Sequence record: PV455607.1
Origin: Enterococcus phage vB_EfaP_2/Chl-5
DNA: 18,099 nucleotides
Strand: one strand, 5' to 3'
Made by a program: the position numbers and the translations under genes. The notes beneath the pieces were generated by a model. That model had not been told where the DNA came from and did no database searches. It saw only the letters and a list, made by a program, of their open reading frames with translations. Position 1 is the first letter of the stretch. Each line of letters begins with the position of its first letter. Shown in pieces: positions 1-18,099 of this stretch.

Positions 1-43
1 AGAATATTGTTATAAAATACTTACATTTTTATCTATTATATCC

Positions 44-4400: not shown

Positions 4401-4571
4401 ATGGATTTATATAAAGCAATATTTATTGTACGTGATGAAGGAACGATTGACGGTTACGCTACCGAACACTTTGTTGATATTTCTTTACACGACTTTGAAG
4501 AAATCTATGGAAAAGAAACACGTGAAATTGAAGCAGTAACATTAGTAAAAACAGGAAATTTCAAAAAATAA
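4401..4571 (+). CDS. 56-aa acidic ORF missed by the ORF track; possible phi29 p56-like uracil-DNA-glycosylase inhibitor (DNA mimic)
   Basis: Strong RBS AAGGAGG (4389-4395) 5 nt before ATG 4401; stop TAA 4569-4571. Translation MDLYKAIFIVRDEGTIDGYATEHFVDISLHDFEEIYGKETREIEAVTLVKTGNFKK has net charge about -5. ISLHDFEEIYGKETREIE resembles the LSLSDFEVLYGNTADEII segment of phi29 p56 as I recall it. It is the same length (56 aa) and sits in the same genomic position, after the polymerase and before the pRNA. Confidence 0.55.
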   Translation: MDLYKAIFIVRDEGTIDGYATEHFVDISLHDFEEIYGKETREIEAVTLVKTGNFKK

Positions 4572-4575
4572 ATTA

Positions 4576-4604
4576 TTTACATCCTTTGCAAAGTATGGTA
4601 AAAT
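4576..4604 (+). promoter_or_regulatory. Promoter TTTACA (4576-4581), 17-bp spacer, extended -10 TGgTAAAAT (4596-4604) driving a short non-coding transcript
   Basis: Read directly. No ORF follows. A strong terminator lies about 160 nt downstream. Confidence 0.55.
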
Positions 4605-4610
4605 ATTCTT

Positions 4611-4767
4611 GTGATAGTTGACAAGAGTCAAATTTGGCGAGATTGGGCGAATGTACACGTGAAATATCGTGCGCTCCCGTTAAGTTATGGACACATAAAC
4701 GTTTTGACCGTCAACCAATCGCAAAAACCTTTTAGGAGTAGCCCTTAAATGTGGCTACTCTTTTTTT
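4611..4767 (+). ncRNA. Candidate packaging RNA (pRNA-like), about 155 nt from predicted TSS to terminator
   Basis: It is a promoter-to-terminator unit without coding capacity at the position adjacent to gene 2 / p56 where phi29 encodes pRNA. Internal hairpins are TTGAC-AAGA-GTCAA (4618-4632), GTTTT...AAAAC (4701-4728) and the terminator stem. Its 5' GTTGAC/GATTGG segments are complementary to its 3' GTCAACCAATC. Confidence 0.45.
4736..4767 (+). terminator. Rho-independent terminator (stem GAGTAGCC 4736-4743 / GGCTACTC 4753-4760, 9-nt loop, T7 4761-4767)
   Basis: Read directly: perfect 8-bp GC-containing stem followed by seven T residues. Confidence 0.75.
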
Positions 4768-4783
4768 GTGTTTCACAGAATTA

Positions 4784-4799
4784 TGTTTCACGTGAAACA
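4784..4799. promoter_or_regulatory. parS: Perfect 16-bp palindrome TGTTTCACGTGAAACA matching the bacterial parS (ParB/Spo0J) consensus tGTTNCACGTGAAACa
   Basis: Read directly. A GTTTCAC half-site lies at 4770-4776. ACACGTGAAAT occurs at 4518-4528 and 4655-4665. The palindrome overlaps the -35 position of the late promoter. Confidence 0.6.
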
Positions 4800-4815
4800 G
4801 TTTTTATGGTATAAT
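4787..4815 (+). promoter_or_regulatory. Late promoter: extended -10 TGgTATAAT (4807-4815) with a poor -35 (TTCACG)
   Basis: Read directly. It lies 24 nt upstream of the scaffold-gene start and heads the whole late operon. Confidence 0.6.
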
Positions 4816-4838
4816 AGAATCAAAAGGAGGTGGAGATT

Positions 4839-5142: not shown

Positions 5143-6471
5143 ATGGCAGATAAAATCACAGAACAAGATGTTCTTAACGCCACAAATGTAGAAACACCAG
5201 TACAATTAATGACTGCTATTTATAATAGCTCATCATCTCTTTTTCAAGCGAACGTACCTATGCCAAATGCAGATAACATTCAAGCGGTTGGTGCTGGGAT
5301 CACACGTTTAGATGTAGTAAAAAATGAATTTATTTCAACTTTAGTTGATCGTATTGGTAAAGTAGTTATTCAATACAAATCATGGCGAAACCCTTTGAAA
5401 ATGTTTAAAAAAGGAAACATGCCTTTAGGTCGAACGATCGAAGAAATTTTTGTTGACATTGCACAGGAACATAAATTCAATCCTGAAGAATCTGTTACAG
5501 GTGTATTTAAACAGGAAGTTCCCGATGTAAAAACATTGTTTCACGAAATTAATCGTGAAGGTTACTACAAACAAACGATCCAAGAAGCATGGTTAGAAAA
5601 AGCATTTACTTCATGGGATAATTTCAATAGTTTCGTTGCTGGTGTAATGAATGCTTTATACACAGGCGATGAAGTAAGTGAATTTGAATACACGAAATTG
5701 TTAATAGCAAACTACCAAGAAAAAGAGTTATTCAAAGAGATCGAAATTGGCGAAATTAATGAATCAAATGCAAAAAATTTTATTCGTAAGATCAAAGCAA
5801 CATCAAACAAACTTGAATTTATGAACAATTCTTACAATGCACAAGGTGTAAGAACATCAACAGCTAAAGCCGACCAATACGTTATTATTGACGCTGACAC
5901 TGACGCTACAATTGACGTTGACGTTTTAGCAGCGGCATTCAATATGAGTAAAACTGACTTTGTAGGACACAAAATCGTTATTGATGAGTTTCCTAAAAAA
6001 GAAGGCGAAGATTCGTCAAATATTGTGGCAGTTATTGTAGATAGTGAGTGGTTTATGATCTATGACAAATTGTACAAAACAACAAGTCTATACAACCCTG
6101 AAGGCTTATATTGGAATTATTGGTTGCACCACCACCAACTATATTCTACTTCTCAATTCGGGAACGCCGTTGCTTTTGTTAAATCAGCAACAAAACCTGT
6201 CACAAAAGTTGCTTTTGCAAGTGCAACAGCTACTGTTGTTAAAGGTTCATCTAAAGATATCGCATTGACATTTACACCAGCAGAAGCAACAAACCAAGAA
6301 GGAGAAGTAGTTTCATCAGCACCAACATTGGTTAAGGCAACCGTAAAACAAACAGCAGGTAAAGCGACTGGCGTAACCGTAGAAGGCTTAGAAGTCGGTC
6401 AATCATTAGTAACATTCACAGCTATCGGAGGTCAACAAGCAACGGTTCTTGTTACGGTTACTTCTGACTAA
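5143..6471 (+). CDS. gp8: Major capsid protein (phi29 gp8-like) with C-terminal Ig-like Big_2 domain
   Basis: [15 protein letters not shown]...[21 protein letters not shown] parallels phi29 gp8 (FITSLVDRIGLVVIR...[21 protein letters not shown]). The C-terminal 80 aa are rich in T/V/A beta-strand residues, typical of Big_2. It is 442 aa, against 448 aa in phi29. Confidence 0.95.
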   Translation: [442 protein letters not shown]

Positions 6472-15499: not shown

Positions 15500-16531
15500 A
15501 TGACAAATAGCTTAGGCGTTAAACTTAAAGAGAAAAACTTATACTATAGTCCTAACAATGCTTTAGGTTTCAATTGCCTAATGTTATTTGTTATAGGGGC
15601 GCGTGGTATAGGGAAAACATATGGATATAAGAAATTTGTTGTTAATCGTTTTATAAAACATGGCGAACAATTTATTTATTTAAGAAGATTCAAAACAGAG
15701 CTTAAAAAGATTCCTCAATTTTTCAAAACAATGGCGAAAGAGTTTCCGGATCATAAACTTGAAGTAAAAGGAAAAGAATTTTATTGTGATGATAAATTAA
15801 TGGGCTGGGCTGTTCCGCTTAGTACGTGGGGAATTGAAAAGTCTAATGAATATCCAGATGTTCGCACAATTTTGTTTGATGAGTTTTTAATTGAGAAATC
15901 AAAGATCACTTATTTACCAAATGAAGCTGAAGCCTTGTTGAATATGATGGAAACTGTTTTTCGTGATCGGACTAATACTAGATGTATTATGTTAAGCAAT
16001 GCAACGAGTGTAGTCAACCCTTATTTCTTGTATTTCAATCTACAGCCAGATTTGAATAAGCGTTTTAATCTCTATCAAGATCGAGGTATTTTGATTGAAT
16101 TGTGTGATTCTAAAGACTTTGCAGAAGTGAAGAAACAAACACCGTTCGGAAGGTTAATACGTGGTACAGATTATGAAGATTTCAGTATCAACAATGAATT
16201 TGTTAATGATAGTGATACATTTATTGAAAAGAGAAGTAAGAATAGTAGTTTTCTATGTGCAATTGCTTTTGAAGGGAAAATATTTGGTTATTGGATAGAC
16301 GCGGAAACGGGTTGTGTATATGTGAGTTATGATTATCAACCAAATACAAACCATTTTTATGCAATGACTACAAAAGACCATGAGGAAAACAGATTGTTGA
16401 TGAAAAATTGGCGGAATAATTATTATCTTTCAACAGTGGCGAAAGCATTCAAAAATAGTTATTTACGGTTTGATAATATTGTTATTAAGAATTTACATTA
16501 TGACTTGTTTAATAAGATGAAAATCTGGTAA
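15500..16531 (+). CDS. gp16: DNA packaging ATPase (phi29 gp16-like); start ATG 15500 after AGGAG (track GTG 15491)
   Basis: Walker A GARGIGKT is present. Extensive collinearity with recalled phi29 gp16 (VIGARGIGKS...NRFIKYGEQFIYVRRYK...EFPDH...GWAIPLS...EKSN.YP.V.TI.FDEF). Confidence 0.93.
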   Translation: MTNSLGVKLKEKNLYYSPNNALGFNCLMLFVIGARGIGKTYGYKKFVVNRFIKHGEQFIYLRRFKTELKKIPQFFKTMAKEFPDHKLEVKGKEFYCDDKLMGWAVPLSTWGIEKSNEYPDVRTILFDEFLIEKSKITYLPNEAEALLNMMETVFRDRTNTRCIMLSNATSVVNPYFLYFNLQPDLNKRFNLYQDRGILIELCDSKDFAEVKKQTPFGRLIRGTDYEDFSINNEFVNDSDTFIEKRSKNSSFLCAIAFEGKIFGYWIDAETGCVYVSYDYQPNTNHFYAMTTKDHEENRLLMKNWRNNYYLSTVAKAFKNSYLRFDNIVIKNLHYDLFNKMKIW

Positions 16532-16533
16532 CC

Positions 16534-16707
16534 CTATTTTAGTAGAGTTACCACGATTAGCTCTATGACAATGATGAATAGTAGGTAGCATATTGATTGT
16601 AGTCTGCGATAGTTATGTTTTGGTTCTTTGGCGCTAGTGATTTTTGCTAACGCCTTTTTGTTTGCTTTTGGATCTGGTGTGTTAATGTAGACGAAGTCTT
16701 TTCTCAT
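16534..16707 (-). CDS. Small right-early protein (57 aa) with C-terminal transmembrane helix; start ATG 16707 (track start 16806 would overlap the upstream gene by 100 nt)
   Basis: RBS AAGGAG sits 9 nt upstream of ATG 16707-16705. ATGA overlap with the stop of the gene at 16704. C-terminus ICYLLFIIVIELIVVTLL is hydrophobic. Confidence 0.55.
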   Translation of the reverse strand: MRKDFVYINTPDPKANKKALAKITSAKEPKHNYRRLQSICYLLFIIVIELIVVTLLK

Positions 16708-17015
16708 AGTTCTTTCTCCTTTAGATATCCTTTTGGTATTTGTATTGCTAACTGATAACGAGAACCAACTTTTATATATGAAGTTACTAATTTCATGGCT
16801 TGGCAATATTTTTCGAGAATATTGAATTGACTCGATTCCGGTAATAGTGTCGAATGAGTTAATAAAAGTTCGGTAATATTTATTTCCGGAACGTCGAAAT
16901 CTTTTAAAGTACCCTCTATGACCTCTATTTTTTCATTGTCTGAAAGGCTACGTTTAAAATAGAAACGTAGCCACTCGATAAGATCGTAGTGTTCTTTGAA
17001 TGTTCGTGCAATCAT
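16704..17015 (-). CDS. Right-early hypothetical protein (103 aa); start ATG 17015 after GGAGGG
   Basis: RBS GGAGGG is 6 nt before the second in-frame ATG. The first ATG (17057) has no RBS and would overlap the upstream gene. Confidence 0.6.
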   Translation of the reverse strand: MIARTFKEHYDLIEWLRFYFKRSLSDNEKIEVIEGTLKDFDVPEINITELLLTHSTLLPESSQFNILEKYCQAMKLVTSYIKVGSRYQLAIQIPKGYLKEKEL

Positions 17016-17016
17016 T

Positions 17017-17310
17017 TTAAGCCCTCCGTTTGTCCTTAATTTGTTTATATCCGTCATGTTTCAATTGTTCCGCATAGTGTTCAACGCTTTTCATTGATTT
17101 CGTTATTGCGATATTAATGCAATGGCTATCAAGATAAACATAGTTATATTTATCATGTGTTAAAACGAACTCTTTTGTAACGTAATCAATGTATAAAATT
17201 AATTGATTCCCTCCTTGTGTTATTTCTGACTTGATAGACGCTAAGCTATCGTTGTCATCTTTAGTTAGTTGATTTAAACCCTCTAAAATTAATGATAAAT
17301 TATTAATCAT
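17017..17310 (-). CDS. Right-early hypothetical protein (97 aa); start ATG 17310 (track GTG 17319)
   Basis: AAAGGAG is followed by an 8-nt spacer to ATG. The RBS lies inside the 74-bp repeat copy 1. Confidence 0.6.
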   Translation of the reverse strand: MINNLSLILEGLNQLTKDDNDSLASIKSEITQGGNQLILYIDYVTKEFVLTHDKYNYVYLDSHCINIAITKSMKSVEHYAEQLKHDGYKQIKDKRRA

Positions 17311-17313
17311 GTA

Positions 17314-17387
17314 AAACACTCCTTTTATATTAATTTGATATTGATACTACCAATCGATCGGGATTGGTAGCATTGTATTAAATTAAT
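17314..17387. repeat. 74-bp intercistronic repeat copy 1 with 9-bp-stem hairpin CTACCAATC-GATCGG-GATTGGTAG (17347-17370)
   Basis: It is about 90 percent identical to 17620-17693. On the minus strand it carries the AAAGGAG RBS of the downstream gene. Confidence 0.85.
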
Positions 17388-17616
17388 CAGTTATTTTTGT
17401 AGTTTTCCATGAATATTCGGAAATAAGATCCATATCTAATTCCTTTAACTCTTCAAAAGATAACAAACAATATTCCTCATCGCCTACATCATCGATATCT
17501 ATACGATAATGCTTATTGTTTTCGGTATCTATGATATGATAATTCATATCCCAGACATTAAAAGGGCGAAGTAGAGATACCTCTCCTTTTTCAGCTATTA
17601 ATGCTTTGTTAAACAT
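17383..17616 (-). CDS. Right-early small acidic protein (77 aa); start ATG 17616 (track ATG 17679 lies inside the repeat/hairpin)
   Basis: AAGGAG plus an 8-nt spacer precede ATG 17616. The product MFNKALIAEKGE... is rich in D/E. Confidence 0.55.
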   Translation of the reverse strand: MFNKALIAEKGEVSLLRPFNVWDMNYHIIDTENNKHYRIDIDDVGDEEYCLLSFEELKELDMDLISEYSWKTTKITD

Positions 17617-17619
17617 ATG

Positions 17620-17693
17620 AAACACTCCTTTTATATTAATTTGATATTGATACCACCAATCTGATAAGATTGGTAGCATTGTATTAAATTAAT
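17620..17693. repeat. 74-bp intercistronic repeat copy 2 with hairpin CCACCAATC-TGATAA-GATTGGTAG (17653-17676, one mismatch)
   Basis: Direct repeat of 17314-17387. The loop and a few flanking bases differ. Confidence 0.85.
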
Positions 17694-17880
17694 ATTCTGG
17701 ATAGTCTATTGAGTAACACCAATTATCAATATAAAGTCTTTCAGTATCTAGCAACTTTTTAGCGTCTGAATCGTCGAACTCTGAATGGATGAATTCGCTA
17801 AGTTTATCCTCATCTCTAAAAAGCTTCATATTCATTATAGTGTTTTCGTAGATCTCTGTATATACGATCGGTTCATTCAT
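17689..17880 (-). CDS. First right-early gene, small acidic protein (63 aa from ATG 17880; track ATG 17919 lies within the promoter)
   Basis: AAAGGA plus an 8-nt spacer precede ATG 17880. The upstream in-frame ATGs fall at or before the predicted transcription start. Confidence 0.5.
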   Translation of the reverse strand: MNEPIVYTEIYENTIMNMKLFRDEDKLSEFIHSEFDDSDAKKLLDTERLYIDNWCYSIDYPEY

Positions 17881-17909
17881 GTTTATCATCCTTTCTTTAT
17901 TACATCTAT

Positions 17910-17938
17910 AGTATATCATGTATTTACATATATGTCAA
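17910..17938 (-). promoter_or_regulatory. Right-end early promoter, proximal copy: -35 TTGACA (rc of 17933-17938), 17-bp spacer, extended -10 TGaTATACT (rc of 17910-17918)
   Basis: Read directly on the minus strand. It is a near-consensus sigma-A promoter pointing leftward into the right-early operon. Confidence 0.65.
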
Positions 17939-18004
17939 TCATTTAATTCATTTATTTAATGATTTATTTGATTGTTTTTATGATCCTTTCTTTATTACAT
18001 CTAT

Positions 18005-18033
18005 AGTATATCATGTATGTTTGTATTTGTCAA
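18005..18033 (-). promoter_or_regulatory. Right-end early promoter, distal copy: -35 TTGACA (rc of 18028-18033), 17-bp spacer, extended -10 TGaTATACT (rc of 18005-18013)
   Basis: It has the same architecture as the proximal copy, 95 bp further upstream (minus-strand sense). Both lie inside about 50-bp direct repeats at 17888-17940 and 17983-18035. Confidence 0.6.
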
Positions 18034-18099
18034 CAATTAAAATCATATAAATGTAGGTTGGGGTCATTTACAAATGTGTTATCAAAAAAAGATAATATT

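Follow-up and report, generated by a model that had tools for sequence, protein, structure and literature searches.

In the right-early operon of a phi29-like Enterococcus phage, two closely similar copies of a repeat separate consecutive genes, and we propose, with a probability of about 0.6, that this repeat serves both as a structured module between cistrons of the polycistronic right-early mRNA and as a cassette joint. Comparison of related genomes makes it very probable that the repeat, hereafter the element, acts as a homologous recombination or gene-conversion joint, with single early genes being lost, gained and swapped exactly at this place. Some RNA-level role of the element is likely, judging from the covariation described below, and cleavage by RNase III specifically is a candidate mechanism to which we give somewhat less than even odds.

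The element in the right-early operon

The DNA analysed here (the window; 18,099 nt) is the complete genome of a phi29-like podophage of the Salasmaviridae. Closely related phages are CUB-FM (PV646496; an Enterococcus faecium phage) and Athos (LR990834), with 95.7% and 91% identity to the window, respectively, and the packaging ATPase is 55% identical to phi29 gp16. The right end has the phi29 layout, comprised of a gp16-like ATPase gene ending at 16531, a bidirectional terminator, and an inward minus-strand operon of small genes read from right-end promoters, which bears out the label of right-early genes used in the sequence-only reading. Near the right terminus, the promoter scan identified two right-early promoters (18033-18005 and 17938-17910, minus strand; consensus TTGACA-17-TATACT). 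The operon contains, all on the minus strand, the first right-early gene orfA (17880-17689; 63 aa), the cassette gene orfB between both copies of the element (17616-17383; 77 aa, acidic, phrog_19608), orfC downstream of copy 1 (17310-17017; 97 aa), orfD (17015-16704; 103 aa), and orfE (16707-16534; 57 aa). The operon is closed by an intrinsic terminator (16526..16553, minus strand), where the gp16-like ATPase gene also ends, in a back-to-back arrangement.

The right-early promoter region is itself repetitive, with two tandem units of promoter, leader and RBS at 17882..18049 (minus strand) that form a 73-nt repeat of 85% identity. This phi29 C2-like region is a second conserved joint, bounding the swap between orfA and its allele orfA' that is described below. 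The outer promoter unit is followed in the window only by a decayed mini-ORF with ATC in place of ATG, and in Athos by a 9-codon ORF. Contig L009 has at least three promoter units (5304-5100) and starts within the outermost one, and the more distant L258 has two, each with a small gene of its own.

Elsewhere in the window, a non-coding gap between the replication and structural genes (4571-4830, plus strand) contains a promoter-like TTTACA-N17-TGgTAAAAT and a GC-richer stretch of ~150 nt, whose predicted fold brings the 5' and 3' ends into pairing (-47.3 kcal/mol, z = -3.4); a classical terminator is found at ~4735-4767 (plus strand; GGAGTAGCC...GGCTACTC then T7). This stretch is probably the packaging RNA (pRNA) of the phage, one with no pRNA match in Rfam.

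The sequence-only reading had described two copies about 90% identical, each lying between a stop codon and the next minus-strand start, each providing an AAAGGAG RBS and an inverted repeat without a U-tract, and with the likeness running on into the first codons downstream; these observations hold. Between 17314-17387 and 17620-17693, 67 of 74 bases match (90.5%), and six of the seven differences are hairpin loop positions. The ungapped repeat is 88 nt long at 88% identity (17300-17387 versus 17606-17693, a spacing of 306 nt), and the gapped self-alignment of 17288-17387 with 17597-17693 scores 115 bits, as compared with at most 36.5 bits for dinucleotide shuffles (n=40). Copy 1 occupies the orfB-orfC junction (17311..17387, minus strand), from the last bases and stop codon of orfB to the base ahead of the orfC ATG, and copy 2 occupies the orfA-orfB junction (17617..17695, minus strand); the covariance model scores are 108.6 and 110.4 bits, respectively. 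The upstream stop codons are TAA at 17385-17383 and 17691-17689, and the downstream ATG codons are at 17310-17308 and 17616-17614. The Shine-Dalgarno (SD) sequence AAAGGAG is placed 8-9 nt ahead of the downstream ATG in both copies (17325-17319 and 17631-17625, minus strand), and the downstream ORFs remain alike for ~4 codons, or up to ~8 when a gap is allowed.

The inverted repeat ACCAATC-N6-GATTGGT has exact matches in the window at these two sites only, and a mismatch-tolerant pattern search and covariance model R1 run with filters off found no further copies in the window. By pattern search and the same model, the element is absent from the phi29 right arm and from the loci of orfB and orfY homologues in Saphexavirus and Schiekvirus. 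Comparison of the complete window with Rfam (E <= 1) returned nothing relevant and no pRNA, and ARAGORN identified no tRNA in the window or in distant relatives. No minus-strand promoter was called inside either copy by the promoter scan. The best manual candidate (TTGGTG/TTGGTA-N18-TATAAA) was rejected, being without the conserved final T and having a start that would fall after the SD.

The terminator scan called no minus-strand terminator inside either copy, in agreement with the inverted repeat being no classic terminator; its sole call within the copies was in copy 1 on the non-transcribed plus strand. This bears on the possibility of a partial terminator or pause site (attenuator) that would grade expression in the order orfA > orfB > orfC, a reading that we regard as unlikely. 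There is a stable hairpin between the cistrons, and the stem-loops of the PeSL cassettes discussed below terminate efficiently in reporter assays (PMC2839356), but no U-tract follows the stem of the element on the sense strand (UAUCAAUAUC), no promoter stands after it, so that termination would silence the 4-5 downstream genes, and the operon has a true terminator, of classical form, at 16553-16526.

The two-tier hairpin and its conservation

Each copy of the element folds into a two-tier hairpin of ~23-25 bp in total (z = -3.2 and -5.1 for the two copies). The two 7-nt arms recognized in the sequence-only reading are present exactly, but the true helix is longer and starts at the stop codon. 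A 12-bp inner stem with two G.U pairs and a 6-nt loop is followed by a 2x3 internal loop, a 3-bp helix, an A.C mismatch (1x1), and an AU-rich outer stem of 8-10 bp with the stop codon within its 5' arm; from the 3' end of the hairpin to the SD there are 3-4 nt. In copy 1 the whole hairpin spans 17387-17329 (minus strand), with the outer stem formed by 17387-17380 and 17336-17329, the 3-bp helix by 17378-17376 and 17340-17338, and the inner stem by 17373-17362 and 17355-17344 around the loop CCGAUC (17361-17356). In copy 2 (17695-17635, minus strand) the inner stem pairs 17679-17668 with 17661-17650 around the loop UUAUCA (17667-17662).

Across six copies the folding z-scores range from -3.2 to -5.1. 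The minus-strand fold is better by 1-4 kcal/mol in most copies, and the plus strand is better in 2 of 17. The plus strand folds nearly as well because the sequence is a palindrome, and for this reason covariation does not distinguish an RNA hairpin from a DNA hairpin. Most imperfect pairs of the inner stem are G.U on the transcribed strand. We infer that the hairpin acts in the mRNA, since it lies on the sense strand between cistrons, has its G.U pairs there, and occurs in a spacer without promoter, terminator or coherent frame.

The copies used to assess conservation among close relatives number 32 (17 distinct) and come from 18 related genomes and contigs (alignment A1), including CUB-FM, Athos, two IMG/VR contigs, three metagenome contigs, and ten contigs with an identical orfB, nine of which are from NCBI genome assemblies. 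Scans of genome and metagenome collections with 18-mers gave mostly chance AT-rich matches, the real relatives among the matches listed being L071, L092 and L126. The element is present in every related genome examined. Among the 17 distinct copies, the 68 non-loop columns have 6 extra alleles (0.09 per site), and the 6 loop columns have 9 extra alleles and an indel (1.5 per site), with 11 loop alleles overall and variation at all loop positions. The corresponding values for orfB-orfE in the same genomes are 0.26-0.52 extra alleles per site at third codon positions and 0.07-0.12 at second codon positions. By this measure, the arms, the internal loops and the tail to the SD are constrained like second codon positions, and the loop is unconstrained; strong purifying selection acts on the helix and on the unpaired bases that flank it. 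Loop variation is 3-6 times that of third codon positions, an excess that is marginal because pooling two paralogous copies approximately doubles the expectation, and that we do not take as loop hypermutation.

The conservation makes a recent fortuitous tandem duplication without meaning hardly credible. Two copies 306 nt apart with first codons that are alike too would be expected of such an event, but the repeat occurs in every related genome examined and is conserved above the level of genes, it is also found as a single copy or beside other genes, and the coding parts are unrelated.

A coding function can be considered as well, in which an ATG in the 5' arm would start an N-terminal extension (MLPIxxDWWYQYQINIKGVFxM), as in CUB-FM gene 28c. 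This frame is open in most copies and is used by the public CUB-FM annotation, but it is interrupted by a stop or frameshift in 5 of the 17 distinct copies, among them window copy 1 (TAG), Athos copy 2 (one additional A, +1), and the copies of L249 and L251 that have a 7-nt loop. Moreover, the loop varies at all three codon positions, and the internal ATG has no SD before it, whereas the downstream ATG is preceded by a perfect AAAGGAG; we consider the coding reading highly improbable. In the CUB-FM record (L001; 1085-1381 and 1391-1621), the annotated start of CUBFM_28c is the hairpin-arm ATG and that of CUBFM_29c lies inside a promoter, whereas the Athos annotation uses short, SD-preceded starts. 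The long CUBFM_28c and CUBFM_29c forms are very likely mis-called.

Pairing of the inner stem is complete (100%) throughout the close clade and survives all of the stem changes: window copy 1 has U-A in place of U.G, and Athos copy 1 has C-G in place of U.G together with U-A in place of C-G. Covariation within this clade is weak, with one two-sided change and the observed score reached in 33 of 500 shuffles. Further phage contigs were reached via terminase homologues of 73-79% identity, and their right-early operons contain, at the same operon position, spacers with the order stop codon, hairpin and SD but with different stem sequences. Two such elements are found in L258 (inner stems GUACUGAUAAC/GUUAUCAGUAC and GUGCUGACAAC/GUUGUCAGUAU), one in L260 (UAGAUAAGACAAU/AUUGUCUUAUCUA), and one in L257, with an apex resembling a tRNA T-arm (GGGUUCGAUUCCC). 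The distant elements have in common the flank motifs AUGCUA..., ...GUAUCA, and UUAA at the stop codon, and their outer stem also takes in the stop codon. The total helix is ~24-25 bp in L258b and L260 and 15-16 bp in L258a and L257, two of the five distant elements thus being short. The spacer of L382 has a small ORF and no element, and a search of IMG/VR with a 14-mer from the distant elements gave chance matches only.

Taking the distant elements as positional homologues, on which the strong covariation signal rests, we applied RNAalifold to three copies of the window clade and three distant elements and obtained the same two-tier hairpin with 20 pairs, 13 of which have two-sided compensatory changes. 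In an explicit count 96.5% of cells are paired and the observed values are reached in 0 of 500 shuffles, and slid controls have only 2-3 pairs with two-sided changes. The conserved feature is the helix and not the helix sequence, and the covariation favours the structural role in RNA that the sequence-only reading had suggested as one option. Its other option, in which ACCAATC N6 GATTGGT is an operator whose paired half-sites are recognized in duplex DNA by a dimeric regulator of the phage or the host, is disfavoured and in our estimate very unlikely. Arms that form a perfect 7+7 palindrome, around a spacer of fixed length (6 bp) and variable sequence, would suit an operator. However, the complementarity extends over ~23 bp and takes in the stop-codon region, the changes are symmetric and compensatory, and distant relatives have both arms changed to unrelated sequences that form the same helix; in addition, a variant with a 7-nt spacer exists, and the sites are within the operon and not at a promoter.

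The apex of the L257 element (5317-5395, minus strand) has the form of a canonical tRNA T-arm (GUCAGGG-UUCGAUU-CCCUGAC) and is accompanied by a 6-bp acceptor-like stem. The terminase of this contig has 77% identity, and ARAGORN calls no tRNA at the element, which may be a tRNA-like processing signal.

Exchange of early genes at the element

With E denoting the element, the window, CUB-FM, Athos and L246 have the arrangement orfA-E-orfB-E-orfC. The arrangement orfA'-E-orfB-E-orfC, in which orfA is replaced by a 31%-identical allele found in many relatives, occurs in L071, L092 and L247-254, and L255 is alike except that its first hairpin is deleted. In L007 and L126 orfB is absent and one chimeric element remains (orfA-E-orfC), and in L009 an unrelated gene, orfY, stands in place of orfB-E-orfC (orfA'-E-orfY-orfD). 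A search of related phages for the same repeat flanking different genes, proposed as a check in the sequence-only reading, is therefore positive.

The exchange has left clear traces in L092. Its promoter region is 93% identical to that of the window, the corresponding values for other parts being 48% (orfA), 92% (element), 100% (orfB), 95% (orfC), and 89% (orfD). L092 is by these values a sharp mosaic, the boundaries of which are both kinds of conserved non-coding unit. The orfB gene is 100% identical in L071 and L092 despite diverged flanks. In L246 and L249 one loop allele is found in both copies of the same genome, and loop alleles are common to both junction positions across different genomes; this sharing indicates gene conversion. 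With ~75 nt of near-invariant sequence, the element very probably serves as a joint for homologous recombination and gene conversion.

A natural hairpin-minus mutant is found in L255 (355-395), where the hairpin at the orfA'-orfB junction is gone between two ATTAAT direct repeats, which are the outer-stem arms; the remnant ...TATTAATATAAAAGGAG...ATG keeps the stop codon and the SD. The hairpin is thus not strictly needed for the presence of the downstream gene.

These observations can also be explained by a purely DNA-level recombination joint, the uniformity of which would be due solely to frequent exchange by homology and gene conversion among co-infecting phages, with no role of the hairpin in RNA. 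The gain, loss and swap of cassettes at the element, the loop alleles common to both positions of one genome, and the L255 variant without the hairpin all agree with such a joint. Homogenisation fails, however, to explain six diverged loop bases amid 68 fixed flanking bases, and distant lineages keep the helix by compensatory changes while replacing its sequence. We consider the purely DNA-level explanation unlikely and favour a joint that also functions as a structured module in the mRNA.

A different DNA-based proposal, also unlikely in our view, is that the hairpins are dedicated sites of cassette exchange in single-stranded DNA. Folding of the strand displaced during protein-primed strand-displacement replication would lead to a template switch or a break at the hairpin apex, made by the phi29-type polymerase or in a repair step. 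If true, this would explain the unusually variable apex (loop and upper stem) and the clustered mosaic breakpoints, and one of the smallest tailed phages would have an integron-like cassette system that needs no recombinase. In comparison with integron attC sites or MITEs, the element occurs just twice, each time between a stop and a start codon of the same operon, and its sequence was seen only in relatives of this phage among the matches listed. No integrase or transposase was noticed by inspection of the ORF list and of the annotations of relatives.

The genes flanked by the element differ in origin. The orfB and orfC products have no detectable similarity (E = 14), and homologues of orfB (phrog_19608) and orfY (phrog_14566) are found in the early regions of Saphexavirus and Schiekvirus, which are sipho- and myophages of Enterococcus. 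The duplication of a whole cassette followed by divergence, as proposed in the sequence-only reading, is not supported by these unrelated genes and by the presence of the orfB family in unrelated Enterococcus phages; the repeated part comprises the spacer and the first few codons only. The orfB homologues of large phages begin with MIIAENE..., and podophage orfB begins with MFNKALIAEKGE...; the first ~4 codons of orfB (M-F/I-N-K/N, orfC-like) are probably derived from the resident junction and not from the incoming gene.

An identical orfB is listed in 94 blocks of the collection, mostly in contigs of 10-20 kb, and contigs L246-L255 are from NCBI assemblies (including GCA_015356265.1 and GCA_015452145.1) and one ENA assembly. 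The occurrence of identical orfB across isolate assemblies fits a suggestion made in the Athos paper, namely that phages of this kind persist as carrier-state or pseudolysogenic phages (PMC11210271).

Variation in the right arm is also seen in other forms. A small gene, orfX (76 aa, MATFYKKPIY...), is located between orfD and orfE in Athos and L008 and is absent from the window (loci: window ~16705-16725, minus strand; L002 400-660; L008 4230-4450). The edges of this indel are an RBS microhomology, (T)AAGGAG, and the C-terminal KEKEL with the overlapping ATGA junction is kept with and without orfX. The genome IMGVR_UViG_2870046823_000001 (L005/L007) has the same listed length as the window (18,099 nt) but is distinct from it, with a right arm ~96% identical; it is without orfB and one copy of the element and is ~49 nt short at the right end.

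Proposed function and known counterparts

The long hairpin extends from the upstream stop codon to a few bases before the strong SD of the next gene. In the mechanism that we consider, its ~23-25-bp helix with small internal loops would be recognized by host RNase III, or would undergo some similar structure-specific step. The operon transcript would thereby be cleaved into single-gene mRNAs, with the upstream cistron retaining a protective 3' hairpin and the downstream cistron retaining an SD-proximal polypurine 5' end, as in the early mRNAs of T7 and SP82, and such processing or stabilisation would uncouple the cistrons. The element could also be a plain exonuclease barrier, or a translation insulator or coupler; a terminating ribosome has to melt the outer stem.

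Processing or stabilisation is favoured because two interrupted helical turns and a purine-rich SD resemble the RNase III sites of phages T7 and SP82. The T7 R0.3-R1.3 and SP82 sites are hairpins of about two turns with small internal loops between early cistrons of operons transcribed by host RNA polymerase, and they are repeated, mutually similar, and followed by a purine-rich SD that is a possible 5' stabiliser. The element likewise is a repeated, interrupted two-turn hairpin between early cistrons with a purine-rich SD after it, and the near-continuous double-stranded RNA of ~20 bp or more between cistrons that marks an RNase III site is present in the window (8-10 + 3 + 12 bp). It differs from the T7 and SP82 sites in having no sequence similarity to them, no Rfam match, and shorter helices in some relatives, the 15-16-bp helices of L258a and L257 being short for RNase III. 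The RNase III sites in SP82 early mRNA are attributed to Panganiban & Whiteley 1983 as cited in PMC4838370.

The nearest analogue of the element as a cassette joint is the PeSL (promoter-early stem-loop), a type of regulatory cassette in T4-type phages (Arbiol et al. 2010, PMC2839356; Comeau et al. 2014, PMC4122927). Both are repeated intergenic modules of ~70-100 nt. They open in AT-rich sequence at the stop codon of the preceding gene, include a stem-loop in which G-T pairs occur, and close with the SD and start codon of the gene that follows; the genes beside them are small, of unknown function, and part of a hyperplastic early region. Indels and replacements are bounded by the repeat in PeSLs and here alike, with two copies around a gene in one genome and one chimeric copy in another; the orfB case matches that of RB49 ORF192 versus phi1. 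The differences are: i) a sigma-70-type early promoter inside the PeSL, whereas the element has no sigma-70/SigA promoter inside it and is thus located within an operon, ii) a much longer stem-loop in the element, which is two-tier with ~23 bp and is not GC-rich, and iii) occurrence of the element, in two copies only, in an 18-kb protein-primed podovirus of a Gram-positive host. Since the defining promoter is absent, the element is not a PeSL but a promoter-less, long-hairpin analogue within an operon.

Repeated non-coding units before successive small early genes are also found in Enterococcus phages of Schiekvirus and Saphexavirus, where they consist of promoter and RBS; phage 113, for example, has seven such units of 99 nt in 3.2 kb. 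Two tandem copies of such a unit are present at the right end of the window. Unlike the element, these units are promoters, some of them after a classical terminator, they have no long hairpin, and they are unmatched by the covariance model. In phi29 the right-early genes abut or overlap without spacers, and there is no positional analogue of the element. A description of the element was not found in the literature on Athos-like phages.

The element would provide a compact example of how mRNA is structured in phages of Gram-positive bacteria; to our knowledge, intercistronic processing in such phages has barely been studied since SP82. The analysis of the element also corrects gene starts in public annotations. 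Athos-like phages are therapy candidates against vancomycin-resistant E. faecium, and they occur in many E. faecium isolate assemblies (PMC11210271), as also seen here. Their right-early operon is the sole fast-changing part of their gene content, and the element marks the points of exchange within it. Genes orfA, orfB, orfC and orfY are candidates for accessory functions in host takeover or anti-defence, and knowledge of the joints would allow one to predict and engineer cassette swaps in these phages.
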